Source: an uncultured Nitrospiraceae bacterium (lineage in GTDB: Bacteria; Nitrospirota; Thermodesulfovibrionia; Thermodesulfovibrionales; SM23-35). Taken from it: a stretch of DNA of 64,000 bases. Positions 29,386 to 39,448 of the stretch are shown here, piece after piece; position 1 is the first letter of the stretch; the number at the start of each line of letters is the position of its first letter. A program made the position numbers and the translations under genes. The stretch covers positions 256,001 to 320,000 of the forward strand of contig CAVSHB010000001.1 in NCBI GenBank assembly GCA_963727775.1. The letters are read 5' to 3'. The notes beneath the pieces are model-generated. The model saw only the letters and a program-made list of their open reading frames with translations, made no database searches and had not been told where the DNA came from.

Positions 29386-30411
29386 ATGAATATGTCGAAA
29401 TATATTTCGAAAAGCATCTTGCTCTTGGCCCTTGCAGTGGTAATCTGCTGCATCCTTTATCCCCTTGCCTTATGGGCGATCGGGCAGGCTGTCTTTCCAT
29501 TCCAGGCCAACGGAAGCCTGGTGAAAGGCCCCGACGGCGCCATCGTCGGATCACGGCTCATTGCGCAGCCGTTTACCAAGGACGAGTACTTTCAGCCCCG
29601 TCCTTCCACGCCGTCGTTCGATGCGTCCGCATCGGCCTCGTCGTCCCTGGCCGCTTCGAACTACGCCCTACGCGACAGGGTAGCTCGTTCGCTAGGACCG
29701 ATTGTGACCTATCGGAGTGGGACTAAGGCCGAAAAGGCCGTGGCTCCAGATGTCGAGCAGTGGTTCCAGAAGGATATATACCAGGGGAACCCGCACATCG
29801 TCGCCCAGTGGGCCGACGTACACAACTCTCTTGCCCAGGCATGGGTCAATGCCGACCCGACACACGGCACGTATGTGGACAATTGGGCGAAAGCGCATCC
29901 GGCAGTGGTAGTGCAGTTCATTAAAGATAATCCTGGTACGCCGCAGCCCAAAGCTGCTGATCTGGCGATCGTGTTCTTTAAGAAATTCTCCGAGGAAAAC
30001 CCCGGAAAATTCCCTTCGGCTGTGACGCACAAAGGAGCGAACGGGAAGGACCAAACGAGCATTGAGCCGGTCAAGGAGGGTTCTGACGTTCAGACGACCT
30101 TTTTTGCTATGTGGAGAGAGGACCATCCCGATGCCGACCTTGAGGATGTTCCCGGCGACATGGTCACCGCTTCAGGTTCCGGGCTCGATCCTCATATTAC
30201 TTTGCAAAACGCCGAGTTTCAACTGGAGCGGGTCGCATCGAAATGGGCGGCTAACCTGAAACGTGAGCCATCGGCAGTTCGAAAAGAGATCGAACAGATA
30301 TTACAGAAGAATGCATCCGCCCCGTTTGGAGGACTCGTAGGTGAGAAGGTCGTCAACGTGCTGGAAGTCAATCTCGAACTTCGCAAGCTCTACGGAGCAC
30401 CGTCGTCATAG
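29386..30411 (+). CDS. kdpC: K+-transporting ATPase C subunit with a large internal insertion
   Basis: FQANGSL, GSRLIAQ, YFQPRPS, VTASGSGLDPHI and VNVLEVN motifs. Length 341 aa. Confidence 0.93.
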   Translation: MNMSKYISKSILLLALAVVICCILYPLALWAIGQAVFPFQANGSLVKGPDGAIVGSRLIAQPFTKDEYFQPRPSTPSFDASASASSSLAASNYALRDRVARSLGPIVTYRSGTKAEKAVAPDVEQWFQKDIYQGNPHIVAQWADVHNSLAQAWVNADPTHGTYVDNWAKAHPAVVVQFIKDNPGTPQPKAADLAIVFFKKFSEENPGKFPSAVTHKGANGKDQTSIEPVKEGSDVQTTFFAMWREDHPDADLEDVPGDMVTASGSGLDPHITLQNAEFQLERVASKWAANLKREPSAVRKEIEQILQKNASAPFGGLVGEKVVNVLEVNLELRKLYGAPSS

Positions 30412-30466
30412 ATGCACAACGACGGAGAGGACAATGTATCCATTGATTAATTAAAAGGAGGGAAGG

Positions 30467-31591
30467 ATGACGAAAAGGATTTTTACAATCGGTTTGATGT
30501 TATTAATGATATTAACATTTAGTGCGGGAGCATGGGCGGACGAGGAGAAGAAGGCAAGCAGTATCAATGTTGACGAAATAAAGAAAGCGCTCGGCCTGAG
30601 CATATATCTGCAGGGAGGATACAACTATAACTTTGCGAGCCCGGATTCAGGTGAGAACCAGTTGAGGGTGTTCGACCATAAGGCCAACAGCTTTACGCTG
30701 GACCTTGCGCAGATACAATTTGTAAAAGACCCGGCCGTAGGCGGCTTAGGCTATAAGCTGAAATTATCATTCGGTGAGACCGCTAAGTTCATCCATGCCA
30801 CGGGACTCGGCAATGCAGGCGATGAGTTTGATCTCACCGAGGCGTATATAAGTTATTCAGCGCCGTTGGGGAAAGGCCTCAGGTTTGATTTCGGAAAGAT
30901 GGCGACATATCACGGGGCTGAGGTAATTGAGGCGAGGGACAACCCTAACTATTCCCGTTCATATCTGTTCAACTTTGCAATACCATTCACCCATACAGGG
31001 CTGAAAATGAGTTATGCATTTTCCGATACCCTGAACGCGTCGGTCCATGTAGTCAACGGTTGGGACAACTTCAACGATAACAACAAGTCGAAAACCATGG
31101 GCTTATCAGTCGGCTATACCCCGGTTGAACAGCTTGCAATGATTTTTAACCTTATGTACGGACCTGAGAAGGACGATAACAACCACGACAACCGGTTTCT
31201 GTTCGACTGGGTAGGTACGATAAAGCCTGTAAAGAACCTTAGCATAATACTGAATACCGATTATGCGACAGAGCAACACACTGATCCCGACAGCGGCGGC
31301 ACGGCCAAATGGTATGGAGTATCGGCAATCGCAAAATACGACTTCAGCGACATGTACAGTTTGTCGTTGAGGGGAGAATATTTCAACGACCAGAACGGGG
31401 TGAGAACAGGTACCCCGCAGCATTTGAAAGAAGTAACGCTGACGCCGGAGATCAGGGTAGCACAGGGTTTGATCGTGAGGCCTGAGTACAGGCATGACTG
31501 GTCGAACGGAACGGTATTTGATGCACACGACATGCCGCTGAACAAGAAGCAGCAGGACACCATCGCGGTAGCGTTGATGTATACATGGTAA
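30467..31591 (+). CDS. Outer-membrane beta-barrel porin-like protein
   Basis: Signal peptide, N.NYSRS.LF..A.PFTHTG, NGWD, RPEYRHD and a C-terminal aromatic residue. Confidence 0.85.
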   Translation: MTKRIFTIGLMLLMILTFSAGAWADEEKKASSINVDEIKKALGLSIYLQGGYNYNFASPDSGENQLRVFDHKANSFTLDLAQIQFVKDPAVGGLGYKLKLSFGETAKFIHATGLGNAGDEFDLTEAYISYSAPLGKGLRFDFGKMATYHGAEVIEARDNPNYSRSYLFNFAIPFTHTGLKMSYAFSDTLNASVHVVNGWDNFNDNNKSKTMGLSVGYTPVEQLAMIFNLMYGPEKDDNNHDNRFLFDWVGTIKPVKNLSIILNTDYATEQHTDPDSGGTAKWYGVSAIAKYDFSDMYSLSLRGEYFNDQNGVRTGTPQHLKEVTLTPEIRVAQGLIVRPEYRHDWSNGTVFDAHDMPLNKKQQDTIAVALMYTW

Positions 31592-31689
31592 CCCTTAAAG
31601 ACAGGAAGATTTGAGATGAAACGATTCAATAGCGAGTTAATGGTCGCAGTAATACCGTGCAGGAGTGAAGAAAGGAAAGGGGGTGACTA

Positions 31690-32148
31690 GTGAGGAAGAA
31701 CAAAGTTATGTCCACAATCGATGCTCAGCGGCTTGCGCTCCGTTCACAATCAAGAAGACCAAGGACGACTTTCATTCTCTGCTGCGCACTCCTCTTCCTG
31801 GGCTTGAACATTCCTCTCACTGTTTTTGCTGCTTCCTATGTCCCTGCTCCTCTTTATCATCAACATGAGAAGCAAGAAACTACTATGGGAATCGGTGAAA
31901 CGGTTTATCTGTTTCATAGCGGTACAGATGATGTAAAGAAGACTATTCACGTTGCCGACATCCTTACCGTTCACAGAATAAACCCTTCTTGCCAAGTCAC
32001 GACGGTCGGGAGGATTAAGGTATTATCTTACATCGGAGAAACCTATCTGAAGGGTATTGTCATCGAAGGTGAGATTAGGCCCAAGGACATCGCAAAAAAG
32101 GGAGATGTTTCTTGTCTCATAATTCTGGCAGGCGAGTGTCTTCCTTAG
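31690..32148 (+). CDS. Hypothetical exported protein
   Basis: Hydrophobic N-terminal segment plus a small beta domain, co-oriented within the kdp locus. Start uncertain. Confidence 0.65.
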   Translation: MRKNKVMSTIDAQRLALRSQSRRPRTTFILCCALLFLGLNIPLTVFAASYVPAPLYHQHEKQETTMGIGETVYLFHSGTDDVKKTIHVADILTVHRINPSCQVTTVGRIKVLSYIGETYLKGIVIEGEIRPKDIAKKGDVSCLIILAGECLP

Positions 32149-32230
32149 TCAACAATTCGTACCTCGCACATGTTTCTGATTTGTGCCAGTAGTCGAAAAG
32201 TGCCAAAATAGGGTGAGGAGGAGCAAAGGT

Positions 32231-34921
32231 ATGGAAGATCACAGGTCTGATCCTGATTTGCTTATCGATAGGATGCGCAGGGAAACCGAGCGGAAACGCG
32301 AGGGGCAGCTAAAGATTTTTTTCGGTGCGGCCCCTGGTGTAGGGAAGACCTATGCAATGCTTGGAGCCGCGCAGCAGAAGCGGACGGAAGGACTCAACGT
32401 TGTCGTAGGGCTTGTGGAGACCCACGGGAGGAAGGAAACAGAGGCGCTCCTTGCCGGGCTTGAAGTAATGCCACGCCGTCCCGTTGAATACCACGGCGCG
32501 ACGCTGTCTGAATTTGACATCGATGCTGCTCTAAAAAGGAAACCTGCGCTCATTCTGGTTGATGAACTGGCCCATACCAACGCTCCAGGATCACGCCATA
32601 AAAAGCGATGGCAGGACATATACGAACTGCTTGGCACAGGTATCAATGTATATACCACAGTAAATGTGCAGCACCTCGAAAGTCTGAACGACGTGGTCAC
32701 ACAGATTACCGGCATTAACGTGCGTGAAACCGTCCCCGATTTTCTTCTCGACCGGGCCGACGAAATTGAGCTTATCGACCTTCCTCCAGAAGACCTCTTG
32801 CAGCGCCTCAGGGAAGGGAAGGTATACGTGCCGGAAGTGGTATCACATGCGAGAAAGAACTTCTTCCGCAGAGGTAACCTGCTTGCGCTCCGCGAACTAG
32901 CTCTTCGCCGGACTGCCGAAAGGGTCGACGAGCAGATGCAGAGCTACCGGGAAGTGAAAGGGGTCACGGAGGTATGGCCTGCCGCAGAGCGGATATTGGT
33001 ATGTGTCGGTCCGAATCCCCGTTCGATACGGCTGATCCGGGCCGCAAAGAGAATGGCCGCAGGGCTCAGGGCTGAGTTGATAGCGGTTTACGTCGAGGCC
33101 CCTCACAAGGTGAAGCCGTCTGAAAGCGATCTTAGGCAGCTTGCCGAACATATGCGACTTGCCGAGAGTCTGGGGGCCGAGACCGTGACACTTTCAGCTC
33201 AAAAGGCAAGCGAGGAAATATTGAATTATGCCCGTGCCCGCAATGTCACAAAAATTCTTGTCGGCAAGCCGACCCATCCTCGATGGAAAGATAAGGTATT
33301 CGGTTCCATGCTCGATGAAGTTGTTCGCGGGAGCGGAGAGATCGATGTCTACGTGATAACCGGCGACACCGGCGAAGCGATGACCCGGCACGTTGCAAAA
33401 GCCGCCCTGCGGCGATCAAGCCCAAAAGAATGGGTTCTGTGCATCTCCAGTGTGGCAGTCTGCACGGGGCTTTCCGCTTTGGTGTTCCCCTATCTTACCC
33501 TTGTAGACATTGCTATGGTGTACCTTCTGGGTATTATGCTGGTTTCAAGCCGTGCAGGCAATAGGCCATCGTTGTTGGCGACCTTCCTAAGCGTAGCGGC
33601 CTTTGATTTCTTTTTTGTGCCACCGCGCTATACTTTTGCCGTAAGCGACGTGAAATATTTTTTCACCTTTGCCGTAATGTTCATTGTCGCCTTTGTCATC
33701 AGCAGGCTTACAATAAAGGTACGGGACCAGGCGACCGCGGCCAGACAGCGTGAGCGGAGAACTGCTGCCCTCTACAGCCTGAGCCGAAAACTGGTGCAAG
33801 AACGTGGGATAGAACAACTTAGCGTCATGGCGGTAAAGCATATCAGCGAGGTTTTCTCAAGCCATGTTGTCGTCCTTGTGCCGGATGAAAGAGAAACATT
33901 AACAATCCCGGTCACAGGCCCGGCCACTTTTGCCCTCGATCAAAAGGAACTGAGTGTAGCCCAATGGACCTTTACCCACAGACAAAGGGCTGGTCTCGGA
34001 ACCGATACCCTTTCCGGCGCCAAGGCGCTTTATCTGCCTTTGGTCGCCGCATCGAGAACGGTAGGAGTCATTGGGGTCATGCCCACCCATGCGGGCGGCT
34101 TCTTTGACCAGGAGCAGGTCCATGTTCTGGAGAGTTTCACAAACCAGATCGCTATGGCTATTGACCGCGCCATGCTCTCCCAAGAGGCCCAACAGGCCCT
34201 CCTGAAGGCTGAGACCGAGACTTTGCGAAACACACTCCTCAGTTCCGTCTCGCATGACCTGCGCACCCCTCTATCTGTGATCACAGGCGCAGCGACTGCT
34301 CTTCTTGATAAGGACATAAGCCTGACTCAATCGGGCAAAGAAGAGCTGATCCAGACTATTTATGAGGAGTCTGAACATTTGAACCAGATTATTCGCAATG
34401 TGCTCAATATGACACGCCTTGAGTCCGGGGCGATAACGGTGAAAAAGGAATGGCAGCCCGTTGAGGAGATTGTCGGCGCTGTGCTTGACCGGTTTGGGGA
34501 AAAGCTCAAAGATCGTCCTCTGACAATAGATCTGCCGGCCGATTTGCCGTTGGTCCCCTTTGATCCCTTACTCATAGAACAGGTGCTGATGAACCTCCTG
34601 GACAACACAGTTAAGTATACTCCACAAGGAACTCCTGTTGAACTTTCGGCAGCTGTTAAGGAAGGCAATATTATCGTTAATATAAGCGATCGAGGGCCCG
34701 GTATTCCACCGGGTGAAGAGGAGCGGATATTCGAGAAATTTGTTCGCGGTGCGGCAACAGGTGGCGGTATAGGACTGGGGCTCACCATTTGCTACGCGAT
34801 TGTCACTGCGCATGGCGGGAGGATATGGGCCGAGAACAGGACGGGAGGAGGCGCGGTTTTTAGTTTTGCTCTTCCTATTGGGGAATACCATCCCCAGCCT
34901 GAGATCGAGGAAAAAGTTTGA
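32231..34921 (+). CDS. kdpD: Sensor histidine kinase KdpD
   Basis: LKIFFGAAPGVGKT, VDELAHTN, Usp domain, four TMs, GAF, SHDLRTPL and HATPase. Confidence 0.97.
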   Translation: MEDHRSDPDLLIDRMRRETERKREGQLKIFFGAAPGVGKTYAMLGAAQQKRTEGLNVVVGLVETHGRKETEALLAGLEVMPRRPVEYHGATLSEFDIDAALKRKPALILVDELAHTNAPGSRHKKRWQDIYELLGTGINVYTTVNVQHLESLNDVVTQITGINVRETVPDFLLDRADEIELIDLPPEDLLQRLREGKVYVPEVVSHARKNFFRRGNLLALRELALRRTAERVDEQMQSYREVKGVTEVWPAAERILVCVGPNPRSIRLIRAAKRMAAGLRAELIAVYVEAPHKVKPSESDLRQLAEHMRLAESLGAETVTLSAQKASEEILNYARARNVTKILVGKPTHPRWKDKVFGSMLDEVVRGSGEIDVYVITGDTGEAMTRHVAKAALRRSSPKEWVLCISSVAVCTGLSALVFPYLTLVDIAMVYLLGIMLVSSRAGNRPSLLATFLSVAAFDFFFVPPRYTFAVSDVKYFFTFAVMFIVAFVISRLTIKVRDQATAARQRERRTAALYSLSRKLVQERGIEQLSVMAVKHISEVFSSHVVVLVPDERETLTIPVTGPATFALDQKELSVAQWTFTHRQRAGLGTDTLSGAKALYLPLVAASRTVGVIGVMPTHAGGFFDQEQVHVLESFTNQIAMAIDRAMLSQEAQQALLKAETETLRNTLLSSVSHDLRTPLSVITGAATALLDKDISLTQSGKEELIQTIYEESEHLNQIIRNVLNMTRLESGAITVKKEWQPVEEIVGAVLDRFGEKLKDRPLTIDLPADLPLVPFDPLLIEQVLMNLLDNTVKYTPQGTPVELSAAVKEGNIIVNISDRGPGIPPGEEERIFEKFVRGAATGGGIGLGLTICYAIVTAHGGRIWAENRTGGGAVFSFALPIGEYHPQPEIEEKV

Positions 34922-34957
34922 AACGAGACTCTTTTGAACGTATGGAAACAGGATAGC

Positions 34958-35665
34958 ATGTCAGAGGATAACGGACTAATTTTGCTGATCGAAGATGAGC
35001 CCCAGATGCGGCGTTTCCTCCGCATTACTTTGCAAGGCCACGGCTATCGGCTCGTTGAAGCTGACACAGGAGAAGAGGGATTGCAGCAGGCCATAACCCG
35101 AAATCCCGATATCGTACTCCTCGACCTTGGTTTGCCCGATATAGACGGGATTGAGGTTGCGAAAAGGTTTCGTGAGTGGAGTGAAGTGCTGCCGATCATA
35201 GTCATTTCCGCTCGGGAGCAGGAAGAAGATAAGATCAAGGCACTCGATGCGGGTGCCGACGACTATCTTACCAAACCATTTGGAGCCGGCGAGCTGCTCG
35301 CCCGAATACGTGTAGCCCTCCGTCACAGGGTCATGCAGCAGTCGGTTCAAAAAGACCCGGAGTTCACTCTGGGGGACCTCAGGGTGGATCTCGCAAAAAG
35401 GCGGGTATTTGTGAAAGATAAAGAGATCCATTTGACACCCATAGAATATCGGCTCCTGACCGTGTTAATTAAGAATGCCGGCAATGTTGTCACCCATACT
35501 CACCTTCTGAAGGAAGTATGGGGGCCACCGTATATAGGCCAGACTGAGTACCTTCGAGTATATATGGCACAACTCCGGCGTAAGCTCGAAGAAGATCCTG
35601 CGCAACCCAAGTTTTTGATAAACGAACCGGGTGTTGGCTACAGGTTGAAAGTTGATGTCGGGTAG
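34958..35665 (+). CDS. kdpE: Response regulator KdpE
   Basis: LDLGLPD receiver domain and YLRVYMAQLRRKLE winged HTH. Confidence 0.96.
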   Translation: MSEDNGLILLIEDEPQMRRFLRITLQGHGYRLVEADTGEEGLQQAITRNPDIVLLDLGLPDIDGIEVAKRFREWSEVLPIIVISAREQEEDKIKALDAGADDYLTKPFGAGELLARIRVALRHRVMQQSVQKDPEFTLGDLRVDLAKRRVFVKDKEIHLTPIEYRLLTVLIKNAGNVVTHTHLLKEVWGPPYIGQTEYLRVYMAQLRRKLEEDPAQPKFLINEPGVGYRLKVDVG

Positions 35666-35729
35666 GGTAACAACTTCGAATAAGCGTTATATATAGGAAT
35701 AGCATAAGATTAAACCTCACTATTTAATC

Positions 35730-37485
35730 ATAGGGGAGACTAATTTTATAGCTATTAAAAAAAGAAACCTTCTGCAAGAATATGTTTATGGAGAAACAAA
35801 ATTCTTTTGACAGGAGGTTTCTATGGAACAAGTAGATGGTATCAGACTTAGGGAGTTTCGACAAGTCAAGAAAGAGATACGTGGCTCCGACCAGTATTTG
35901 ATCGTCGGCATCGACGTGGCCAAAGAGAGGCACAATGCCTTTTTCGGCACGGCTAACGGTAAAACGCTGCACAAGGGAGTGATCTTTGACAACACGATTG
36001 AAGGATTTGAGAAACTGCTGACGCTGACAGAAGCACTTAAGGTTCAACATAACTTTACGAAGGCGGTCTTCGTCTTGAGCCCACAGCTAATTACCATAAG
36101 CCTTTGGGAGAGCATCTCATTAAGTGCGGGCATATGGTTGTTTTGTTATCGGGGGCGGCAGTAAAAAACAACCGACCGCTTCTGGATGGCAGATGGGACA
36201 AGCACGACACTAAGGATTCCGCAAACGTAGCCGACCTCATCTGTCAGGGGAAATTCCTCTACTATGAGTACCCGGACCCGAAGATGCAGGATCTGAGGAA
36301 TCTCCTTTCCTTAAAGAGACGACTCAAGAAAGAGGAGCACAGTATCCGGGTTCGCATCCGCAATCAGCTTCTGGCTCAGTATTTCCCTGAGATGGATCGG
36401 CATTTCGGCCCGGCAGTGAGCCTGGCCGTAGTCGGACGCTGTCTTAATCCCTCGGTAATCGCGGGGATGGAATTCGATGAATTCCGCAGGCATGTTGCCA
36501 TCAGCAGGATGAATATTGCCCAACAAAAGCTGTTGCATACAATTTGGCAGATAGCCCCTGAGTCCATTGGATGTTATGTAGGGGACGTAGTACCGTTCGA
36601 GGCGAAGGTGATGGTATCGAAGCTTAATCAGGTGCGAGAGACGATCAAAGAGGTGGAAGATAAAATAGAGGATATGTGCCTACAGTTTCCGGAATACCCA
36701 TGCCTTTTGAGTATCCCAGGCTTTGGGCCGGATGTTTCCTCAAAGGTCCTGGGAGCGATAGGTAATCCCTTTCGCTTTACGAGCTATAAGCAGATCCTGA
36801 AGATGGCTGGCTTCGATCTTTGCGCGGAACGCAGTGGAAAGGCTTCAAACGGCGCAACGCCGGTTATCTCCAAGCAAGGGAAAGCTGATCTTCGATATGC
36901 CTTGTATCAGGCTGCTTTCATCGCTTCCCATCATAACAAAGCCTTTATGACTTATTACACCAACAAGCTTAGAGGCAGACAGAGAGAAAAAGGAATCAGC
37001 ACGAAGATGCATGTTAAGCTGGCCGCAAAGCTCCTGGTTATTGCATGGACCCTGATGAAAAAGAAGGAGCTATTCGATCCAAAATATTTTAATAGGGAGG
37101 ATACTACAATATAGGTCTGATCGAAATAATTCAACTGGGGGCTTCCTGTGAAGCTGTTTCTGTTCCAAGAGCCCTAAAAAATTACTTTGATGCGGAGAGC
37201 CCGAGAATAAGCGTTGAGGCTGAATGACCTCGTGAATGACAATACAGGGCCTCTCACTGAACTTGAGAATTTGGATAAAGGATGATGGGCGGTCCCGCAT
37301 TGCGGAACATGCCGGATAAACGTAACGATAAGAAATCAGGTTCGCTTTAAGTGAGAAAAAGCATCACAGAATTACTCCGTCGTTCGCAAAAACGAAATAG
37401 GAGGGCTTTGCCCTTTAAACGGGTCAACAAGCAACCTTATTAATTTTTATAGACTATTTTTTTTATTGACAGGAGGCACTATAGG
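35730..37485 (+). mobile_element. IS110-family element with a long 3' non-coding end
   Basis: Shared ATAGG at the inferred ends (35730-35734, 37481-37485). Outward TTGACA at 37466. About 370 nt of non-coding sequence follows the ORF. Boundaries are inferred. Confidence 0.7.
35823..37114 (+). pseudogene. IS110 DEDD recombinase with a 1-bp frameshift at ~36072
   Basis: GIDVAK, then VF[G]LEPTANYH restored by adding one G, KHDTKDS, SIPGFG, ERSGK and ISKQG..DLRYALY. Confidence 0.9.
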
Positions 37486-37551
37486 ATGTCATTCCGCTGC
37501 GAAGTTGCGGAATAACACTTATTCGTTCTCGGCAATAGTGCCCTCTCTCTT

Positions 37552-38145
37552 TCAGGGCGTAACATTCACTCTGTAATACCCTTCGTCCGACCGTGGATCC
37601 CAGTTCTGTAAAAAATGGTCGAGGGCAGATGTTTTCCCTATAGGGATATGTCCATACAAAAAAGATAGCTGTTTTGCTGCCTCTGATTTTGGTGCTCCAT
37701 CCACGACGACCTTCCACATGGCGGCTGCAAGTCCGGATCTGTCCGCACCGGCCTGACAGTGTATCAAAATAGGACGAGGCGCGAATTTGAAAACCTTAAT
37801 AAGTTTATTGACTTCAGCATTATCAGGTTCTCGGTATGCCGATAGAGAGATGTCAAAGTGCGTCACATTATGCTTTGCACATGCCACTTTTTCCTCTTTA
37901 TACCATGAAGAACTGAGGTTTTCACCACGCAAATTCAGAACGCTCTTGATGTTATATTGTTTAATATAATACGCAAGCTCATCCCTGTTAAGTTGAGCCG
38001 ACCTGTAAGCTTCTCCCTGCGTGATCGGGTGAAAATTACCACGCTCCGTTACATACCAAAAATAAATTGCAGGTAAAAGAAGTAACAAAGTCAAAACTAT
38101 AATGAAATTCTTTGGTTTGCGTATCATCATCCCGCTATGTCCCAA
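37552..38145 (-). CDS. Dual-specificity/tyrosine phosphatase-like protein, membrane-anchored
   Basis: YRSAQ, VLNLRG and HCQAGADRSG (CX5R) motifs. Confidence 0.9.
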   Translation of the reverse strand: MGHSGMMIRKPKNFIIVLTLLLLLPAIYFWYVTERGNFHPITQGEAYRSAQLNRDELAYYIKQYNIKSVLNLRGENLSSSWYKEEKVACAKHNVTHFDISLSAYREPDNAEVNKLIKVFKFAPRPILIHCQAGADRSGLAAAMWKVVVDGAPKSEAAKQLSFLYGHIPIGKTSALDHFLQNWDPRSDEGYYRVNVTP

Positions 38146-38172
38146 TCCCTCGTATCTATCATTCTCTTAATA

Positions 38173-38319
38173 TACTAAGGAGGTCATAAGTAAGGCCACA
38201 TAAGTTGTCATTCCCGCAAGCGAAGCGCGTCGAGAATCCTTCTGAAAACAAAGAAAGATTCCGGACAAGCCGGAATGACATGGATGCTGAACGTGGCTTT
38301 ACTAATGACCGCATTAGTA
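38173..38319. repeat. MITE-like element enclosing GTCATTCC/GGAATGAC REP-type hairpins
   Basis: 27-bp terminal IRs (23/27). Inner TGTCATTCCCGCAAGC...GATTCCGGACAAGCCGGAATGACA (38206-38280). Confidence 0.8.
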
Positions 38320-38419
38320 ACTAAGCTCAAACATGGTCTGTCACCGATTCCCATTCCTTATCGCTTGAAATCTTTATTCCAGTTTGCCTATATTTTGTGA
38401 GGAACTGTAAAGCAATATC

Positions 38420-39448
38420 TTATTTCCCCACCACCAGGATCACAAAACTGTCTTTGATCATCGTCGGCCGCGGTCTCGATTCTCCTGGCGCTGACGCCGC
38501 TTGCGGAGCAAACTGTGCGGCAGGTAAATAGATATTGTGGGTCTTGGGATCGATCGCCATTGTGCGCGCTCCGCGTTGTGTTGCGACGGTATCGACAACC
38601 TCGAACTTGCCCGGAGACGACTCATGCATCACGGTGAGAGTGCCGTCCCCGTTAGAGCTGAAAGCCAACCCCGTCCCGGGATCGAAACCGTTTCCGTCCA
38701 CCCCTTCGCCGATCGGCACAGTGGCAATTACTTTGCCTGCCTCCGTGTCGAAAATGGCCATAATCTTATTGTGACATCCCACAAAGACCCGATGATACAC
38801 CGAATCAATTCCCATTCCTGTAGGCTCTTCGCAAGGCTTGAGTGAAGACCGCTTAGTTACCGTAAGCTTCCGGCTGTCGATTTCTACGACTTCGTTAGTG
38901 TCTTCGATATTCACGTATACCTTCCCCTTGTCATCCGCCGTCGCAAATTCCGGTTTGCCGCCGAGTGCAATCGTGGCTGCAACCTCTCCACTGAAGCCAT
39001 CGAATACCGTAGCATCCTTACTGCGGCCATTGAAATCGAATACCCGTTTTGAGGCAGGATCGTACAAAATGGCATCAGGATTTGTTCCAGTCTTCACCTG
39101 TCCAAGAACTTTCAGCGTTTTCAAATCGAAAATAGTCGCCGTATTTGCCCGCCCGTTGCTAATAAAGCCGCGATTCAACTCGGGTGCCACCGCGATTCCG
39201 TGTACGCCAGGAGTGTCGGGAATATCGCCTATCAATTTATCTGTGTCGATATCGACCACCATTACGTGGATGGACCGGGAAATGTACAGCCGCCGGGAAA
39301 CGCCATCTACAGCCAGATAGTCCCAGCCGCCTTCGCCGCCCAGTTGCAGTTTTTTGATCACATGATGCCCGGAATCCGCCGCATAGGCGACTGTGCCGAG
39401 AACCAGACCACAGAACAACAAAAGTGTTTTCAATGAAGATGTTTTCAA
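38420..39448 (-). CDS. YncE-family beta-propeller protein
   Basis: Signal peptide, GEGGWDYL, GVHGIA and repeated YVTN-like blades. Confidence 0.88.
   Translation of the reverse strand: MKTSSLKTLLLFCGLVLGTVAYAADSGHHVIKKLQLGGEGGWDYLAVDGVSRRLYISRSIHVMVVDIDTDKLIGDIPDTPGVHGIAVAPELNRGFISNGRANTATIFDLKTLKVLGQVKTGTNPDAILYDPASKRVFDFNGRSKDATVFDGFSGEVAATIALGGKPEFATADDKGKVYVNIEDTNEVVEIDSRKLTVTKRSSLKPCEEPTGMGIDSVYHRVFVGCHNKIMAIFDTEAGKVIATVPIGEGVDGNGFDPGTGLAFSSNGDGTLTVMHESSPGKFEVVDTVATQRGARTMAIDPKTHNIYLPAAQFAPQAASAPGESRPRPTMIKDSFVILVVGK

Follow-up and report, generated by a model that had tools for sequence, protein, structure and literature searches.

An apparently mosaic IS110-group element with a predicted bridge RNA downstream of its recombinase gene in an uncultured Nitrospiraceae bacterium

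It has been recognized that IS110 and IS1111 elements differ in the location and arrangement of their guide RNAs. According to the cited parts of two sources, the usual place of the bridge RNA is upstream of the recombinase gene for IS110 elements but downstream of it for IS1111 elements, though exceptions exist (Durrant 2024 PMC11208160; Siddiquee 2024 PMC11187229), and section 6 of the latter mentions an IS110 group whose region is downstream. The cited parts of the same paper give the guide order as a difference between IS110 and IS1111, and the length of the sub-terminal inverted repeats of IS1111 elements as 7-17, usually 11-13 bp (PMC11187229). IS621 and ISCro4 (IS622) have DEDD and Ser residues and a 2-nt core, all of which are also found here (PMC11208160 and PMC11208158, both in part; PDB 8wt6, 9t56). 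IS1111 seekRNA elements, such as ISEc11, ISPa11 and IS4321, carry a downstream guide RNA, and some IS1111 elements target REPs or the ends of other elements, in both respects like the elements described below (PMC11187229, in part). The IS110-group elements ISPpu9 and ISPpu10 insert into palindromic repeats, as does the copy under study (PMC12288879 and 10.64898/2026.03.19.712850, cited parts), and classic REPs number more than 800 in P. putida (PMC12288879, in part). In this study we analysed a window of 64,000 nt, the whole stretch of DNA considered here, from an uncultured Nitrospiraceae bacterium. Homology with four full paralogues in the same genome delimits an element of about 1.8 kb at 35686-37489, flanked by two GT cores. 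By its sequence features it is an IS110-group element with a well-supported downstream bridge RNA, and the mechanism is one that is already known. We put the probability that the element works by RNA-guided bridge recombination at roughly 0.9, an estimate drawn from sequence comparisons. The features of the window copy are collected in the table.

Table. Positions of observed and predicted features of the element and its target in the window
Feature	Position	Strand	Basis
Left arm of target palindrome; left target LT, AATAAGC, at 35679-35685	35677..35685	+	empty-site comparison
Left GT core copy	35686..35687	+	paralogue homology starts here; single GT in the empty form of L003, a paralogue
Left end, 135 nt, opening with right-donor sequence TATATA	35688..35822	+	comparison of loci
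Predicted hairpin hiding the ribosome-binding site of the recombinase gene	35763..35822	+	fold, -23.3 kcal/mol
Recombinase gene of the IS110 family; D31, E86, D129, D132, S338; product of 430 aa in paralogues	35823..37114	+	domains, paralogue alignment
3' module with another ancestry: final ~100 codons, bridge RNA and right end	36800..37489	+	left limit approximate (36800-36930)
Right non-coding end, 373 nt	37115..37487	+	ORF and paralogue comparison
Predicted bridge RNA, ~177 nt, closed by outer helix; target-binding loop, then donor-binding loop	37189..37365	+	alignment fold
Left target guide, identical to LT + core	37206..37214	+	guide-flank match
Inner hairpin of target-binding loop, holding the second GAATGAC	37216..37231	+	fold
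Right target guide (core + RT, reverse-complemented)	37234..37240	+	guide-flank match
Predicted target-loop handshake bases	37241-37242	+	position
Left donor guide, 8 nt, 7/8 match to left donor + first core base	37277..37284	+	as long as the LDG of IS621
Right donor guide, TAAC, at 37323-37326; handshake bases of donor loop at 37327-37328	37323..37328	+	guide match
TTGACA, candidate -35 box of promoter predicted at circle junction	37466..37471	+	sequence
Left donor LD, last 7 nt of element	37481..37487	+	paralogue alignment
Right GT core copy	37488..37489	+	paralogue comparison; L003 empty form
Right target RT, CATTC, at 37490-37494, and remainder of interrupted palindrome	37490..37525	+	empty-site comparison

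The genome holds four further full copies, with about 89% DNA identity to the window copy, and one partial copy. The comparison drew on 160 loci related to it, namely 80 of 196 genome matches and 80 of 574 metagenome matches; together with the genome's own copies they make up the 166 loci examined. The left junction was located in 126 of them, the right junction in 122 and the target loop in 103; in the remaining loci a flank was missing or the patterns were not fitted. Of the 126 left junctions 120 have a GT core, as have 118 of the 122 right ones; these counts lean to GT because the patterns of this anchored search themselves contained GT. Agreement that does not depend on these patterns comes from a contig of run X3, in which both flanks of paralogue L003 are joined with exactly one GT. 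The 2-nt core is hence seen at both junctions and as a single copy in the empty site. An AT core, first considered by eye, was dropped, since GT accounts for all copies. An initial annotation, made from the window sequence alone, had proposed to fix the ends by aligning other copies and empty sites, and this alignment places them at the two GT cores. The left end at 35730 given by that annotation lies 44 nt too far to the right, because paralogue homology already begins at 35686. Neither ATAGG that it took for an end is terminal: the copy at 35730-35734 is internal and recurs there in one of six aligned relatives, and the right one (37481-37485) also falls within the element, where it belongs to the left-donor sequence. 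Since the true left end is 35686, the empty site rebuilt at that time was wrong and contains 42 nt of element sequence. The ORF-poor 3' region and the TTGACA are as it described them. An 11-nt direct repeat (35807-35817 and 37466-37476) connects the ribosome-binding site region with the right-end -35 region, its left copy being variable among relatives. We also observed a 100-nt block (35790-35890) that is identical to the paralogues inside a region otherwise 88-97% identical, for which gene conversion is a possible explanation.

The recombinase gene of the window copy is split over two frames, 35823-36164 and 36104-37114. Its product carries the domains PF01548 (DEDD RuvC-like) and PF02371 (Tnp20) of IS110 bridge recombinases, and NF033542 scores an intact paralogue at 168.8 bits (cut-off 140), so that the DEDD recombinase first recognized here is confirmed, in two frames. 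The residues D31, E86, D129, D132 and S338 align with the catalytic residues of IS621; among 120 homologues, D31 is present in 117 (3 gaps) and the other four in all 120. The window copy retains the codons for these residues, but the frameshift splits them. It is one base short at 36071/36072 compared with all four full paralogues, just before the catalytic glutamate, and the missing base suspected near 36072 is in this way borne out. The window copy is present in none of the sequencing runs (best share 0.18); contigs of relatives in runs X1 and X10 have the extra base, which is uninformative on the strain of the window. Pairwise alignments of repeats from this assembly contain 0.16 gap openings per kb, which makes an assembly error at this position plausible. 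If the frameshift is real, the sequence predicts no complete enzyme from the window copy, which, barring such an assembly error, is probably inactive on its own. However, the four intact paralogues could act on it in trans, because they and the window copy have a common donor sequence. The predicted anti-Shine-Dalgarno hairpin in front of the gene (35763-35822) is family-wide, with some matching changes on both sides, and a CCTCC-like/GGAGG pair is found by a loose pattern in 124 of 126 loci. A comparable feature is the structured 5' leader that damps translation in ISPpu9 (PMC12288879 and 10.64898/2026.03.19.712850, both in part).

Downstream of the gene, 57 aligned loci whose guides are distinct give a common fold of two internal-loop arms under a single outer helix. 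In this fold 94.7% of the alignment cells pair, as against 30-46% in slid controls, and two-sided changes occur at 17 of 32 pairs, a number as high as which was seen in 0 of 500 shuffles; the outer stem of the target loop is conserved without any two-sided change. The window RNA by itself folds no better than shuffles (z -1.55). A covariance model, which the initial annotation had suggested together with a search for loop/target covariation, matches 74 of 80 genome loci downstream of the gene (30 of these by construction), and four of the six misses are without downstream DNA. Both the conserved structure and the covarying guides were found, but the guide RNA, once thought to be about 370 nt long, is now predicted at about 177 nt. 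Within this genome the model matched only the six IS copies, and no stand-alone RNA copies were detected among the 150 of about 500 candidates that were scored. Rfam gave no match at E up to 1 within 35500-38500. Contigs of relatives from RNA data cover the right end, although contigs cannot show expression. In six loci (L048, L049, L050, L051, L054 and L056) about 1.1 kb lies between the recombinase gene and the bridge RNA, and in L054, the one that was read, it contains a gene for a 323-aa DUF3991/Toprim protein.

Another finding from this analysis is the mixed ancestry of the window copy. To the left of 36800, 116 against 47 informative sites favour paralogue L003 as its relative, while to the right 137 against 15 favour L091 (0/1000 shuffles), which is one 2.1-kb metagenome contig and itself possibly an assembly chimera. 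Trees of 13 rows were built with the target-loop guides excluded and with the duplicates L001, L002, L004 and L094 and the frameshift-misaligned L163 omitted. They group the window copy with L003 for the 5' gene (support 100/98) and with L091 for the right end (98/96), where it also groups with L011 and L012 (99/97). AU tests, for which the clades were picked after a first tree, reject window plus L091 for the 5' gene (p 6e-34) and window plus L003 for the right end (p 6e-42). L091 carries guides identical to those of the window copy and is inserted in the same palindrome, and its 5' gene groups with L014. In the non-guide tail the window copy is 92-94% identical to L091, compared with 57-62% to L003. 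These comparisons suggest that the guide of the window copy was likely acquired when its 3' module was exchanged by recombination with another lineage. For the clade as a whole we propose, tentatively and at slightly under even odds, that the donor ends of these GT-core elements are near-fixed and that the downstream bridge RNA is an exchangeable 3' cassette. Homologous recombination in the last quarter of the gene would then swap whole guide modules between lineages, a one-step retargeting, and broken copies would lend their guide to intact paralogues. It is unlikely, in our estimation, that this is a bridge-RNA element whose mixed ancestry is an assembly chimera, or whose guides and those of L091 arose separately by point mutation. 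Multi-copy repeats are indeed prone to chimeric assembly, and the contig of L091 is short. However, compared with the local paralogues in 150-nt windows, the 5' part shows 88-97% identity rather than 100%, the assembly has no second copy of this 3' end, and the identity with L091 extends to the non-guide tail, which is unexpected from target convergence. In the accessible part of the open literature we found no study of guide exchange by recombination.

How the element compares with described systems also bears on its group. The likeness to IS621 includes a 7+2+5 target, an LTG of 9 nt, an RTG of 7 nt, an 8-nt LDG with one core base and a short RDG, handshake bases, the order LTG-RTG-LDG-RDG, short inverted ends, an RNA of about 177 nt and, in the window copy only, a palindrome as target; the guide layout is that of the IS621 design template (supplement 7 of PMC11208160, in part). 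In contrast to IS621, the RNA here is downstream of the gene, the core is GT instead of CT, there is no 5' hairpin and one outer helix closes both loops, and the protein is about 100 aa longer and distant (E 1e-15). We found no named element above 30% identity to the clade protein. The nearest named protein is ISRel25, of the ISRel25/ISMex12/ISYps2 subgroup of IS110, with 29.6% identity over 92%; this subgroup has a WDKxD motif in common with the clade, and a clear but unnamed clade member adjoins it in Supplementary Table 1 of Durrant (rows 483-484, PMC11208160, in part). By eye, ISRel25 (L171 1910-2180) has a target-loop-like motif behind its stop codon, and its right end carries a similar motif that closes with GT; the RNA covariance model gave no match there, and the ISRel25 guides could not be matched to flanks. 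Our literature search turned up no guide-RNA study of this subgroup.

We consider it very improbable that the element belongs to the IS1111 group, with a seekRNA and ends recognised via long sub-terminal inverted repeats. An RNA 3' of the gene and a right end longer than the left are the usual IS1111 layout (PMC11208160, in part), and the downstream RNA is the one IS1111 feature found here. In contrast, the longest inverted match between the ends is 5 nt in the window copy and 3-7 nt in 87 loci (3-6 nt in 86 and 7 in one), compared with 11-13 bp in IS1111 (PMC11187229, in part), so that the clade has no long sub-terminal inverted repeats. The bottom-strand guide precedes the top-strand guide, which is the IS110 order and the reverse of that in IS1111; the protein has 430 aa as against 330-350 aa, and the clade has a clear donor-binding internal loop. 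ISRel25 is moreover listed among the IS110-type names in the source data of Siddiquee (PMC11187229, in part). The guide order and the short or absent inverted ends therefore place this clade with the IS621-like IS110 group. It departs from the usual left-end bridge RNA of IS110, the downstream location being a listed exception (PMC11187229, in part). Among the literature consulted, including the accessible parts of 10.1101/2025.10.25.684509, 10.64898/2026.08.14.744561, 10.1101/2025.05.14.653916, 10.64898/2026.08.31.748434 and PMC13626964, we found no study of this clade.

The case for RNA guidance comes from the covariation of guides with flanks and ends. The paralogues carry different guides at the same positions, and their flanks differ accordingly. 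Each distinct guide was counted once in the statistics, whose shuffles do not remove relatedness. Counted in this way, left target guides match the flank at 190 of 245 positions in 35 guides (shuffled mean 101.7, sd 7.8; 0/20000 reach this), and right target guides at 85 of 110 in 22 guides (shuffled 36.7, sd 5.4; 0/20000), while two controls are at chance (6/22 vs 5.7; 28/120 vs 27.2). In the donor-binding loop, the fifth base of the donor guide is the same as the fifth donor base in all 109 loci, this base being G in 92, T in 12, C in 3 and A in 2, counts of loci that are not independent events. The right donor guide TAAC is invariant and hence gives a match only, without covariation. Target-binding-loop guides and donor-binding-loop guides, as in IS110 bridge recombinases, are thus both found. 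All 47 guide types have, right after TAAC, a base complementary to target base 7; the second donor-loop handshake base is complementary in only 9 of 47. Pairing of the former loop base with target base 7 is what the handshake rule predicts (PMC11208158, in part), and the natural variation of this clade supports that rule independently. In the window itself, the GAATGACA reported at 37234-37241 and the GAATGAC at 37222-37228 are both present. The 8-nt match, which the first reading cautioned could be chance, has P about 0.011 alone in Markov resamples of the 373-nt end; a 9-nt left-target match, missed in the first reading, has P 0.0013, and both target matches together have P 5e-5, in the same kind of resamples. 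The second GAATGAC was rejected as a guide: it stands in a hairpin-loop position and recurs in six other guide types with non-matching targets, which points to coincidence. That the guide-like matches are chance, or were copied from the flanks after insertion with targeting done by the protein, deserves next to no credence. An 8-nt match alone does occur in about 1% of resamples, but both strands, both ends and a handshake base covary at fixed loop positions over tens of distinct guides, with controls at chance, and copies with one guide occupy different sites with one consensus (L082-L087). Covariation across relatives supports, for the window copy, the earlier reading of an RNA-guided recombinase with a downstream guide RNA on a palindromic repeat.

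When the two flanks of the window copy are joined with one GT kept, they rebuild a palindrome that is intact elsewhere. Two empty target near-copies occur in this genome, each with 13 of 14 bases. The target pattern is also present in 6 of 56 other family genomes, in few copies each (control pattern 0), and eight target loci read from those six genomes match at 14 of 14 bases. As in REPs, a repeated extragenic palindrome occurs without the element, but at low copy; the target palindrome is REP-like but rare. The REP targeting proposed at the outset holds insofar as the target is a palindromic repeat, but this repeat is low-copy and unlike the one at 38206. The empty site had been likened to the hairpin at 38206-38280; the common part is the right half of the target, with 2 of 7 left-target bases. 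That hairpin, a different repeat sharing only this half, was rejected as the target type. Longer GTCATTCC hairpins, such as the one at 38206, match 0-4 of 7 left-target bases, and this second, longer hairpin family, with three copies (window 38206-38280; G000 C1 1132110 and 1464132), is not among the predicted targets.

Strong folding was seen in only eight of the 80 rebuilt empty sites, and three of these eight are copies of one insertion. Palindrome targeting is therefore a property of the guide of the window copy and not of the family. About 59 different 14-bp targets are predicted over the 103 loci, a few of which may be register errors, and most relatives aim elsewhere than at this palindrome. 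Hairpin targets are therefore exceptional in this clade (8/80), unlike in ISPpu9, which also differs in its AG core and, in the cited parts of PMC12288879 and 10.64898/2026.03.19.712850, in having no junction promoter. The paralogues of the window copy target the terminal inverted repeat of an integrase + IS91-type element. Three of the four full paralogues lie in that repeat with flanks in common (L001, L002, L003, L169; G000 C3 213041-220826), and from these same flanks the three paralogues likely travelled with the integrase/IS91-type element. Two copies of the host element (L169 3160-6374 and L170) carry a 3.4-kb block with three tyrosine recombinase genes, the block being inverted in one relative to the other. 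In several genomes (L174, L175, L180, L163, L093 and L001-L003) the end of the integrase/IS91-type element adjoins an arm of the target palindrome across a short variable spacer, so that two unrelated mobile elements may use this palindrome as a landing site. At G000 C3 224026-224083 and C2 ~573949 the left target of the window copy is followed by GT and a paralogue-type right target, and the C3 site is a palindrome carrying 11 additional bases at the core. Such sites may represent scars left either by donor-only excision or by a hybrid element.

The element likely moves in an IS621-like manner by means of the predicted two-loop bridge RNA. Its ends would join at GT to give a circle, whose junction would set TTGACA ahead of the left-end TATATA and allow transcription of the gene and the RNA. 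After processing, the RNA would associate with a tetramer of the recombinase; the first RNA loop would pair with the two strands of the 14-bp target, the second RNA loop with the joined ends, and composite DEDD/Ser sites would exchange strands around GT, aided by the handshake pairs. By analogy we infer transcription, processing, the circle and catalysis. The predicted junction promoter, with only 4 of 6 bases in its -10 box and an 18-nt spacer, is the weakest step of this cycle; its -35 box was the search anchor, so that its count is circular. No circle-junction contig was found among the contigs of seven runs, in which contigs drop rare forms, and a promoter scan of the linear element gave one internal site, below chance.

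The clade can be regarded as a natural library: a single RNA scaffold, combined with a native GT core, an IS621-type guide layout and a protein less than 30% identical to named elements, serves the different predicted 14-bp targets. If active, it would extend bridge editing beyond CT cores, and the mosaic copy points to a natural route of retargeting by a swap of the 3' module. In the window, the element starts 20 nt after a gene run (29386-35665) with putative kdpC, kdpD and kdpE genes, and it is followed by a convergent dual-specificity phosphatase gene at 37552-38145.
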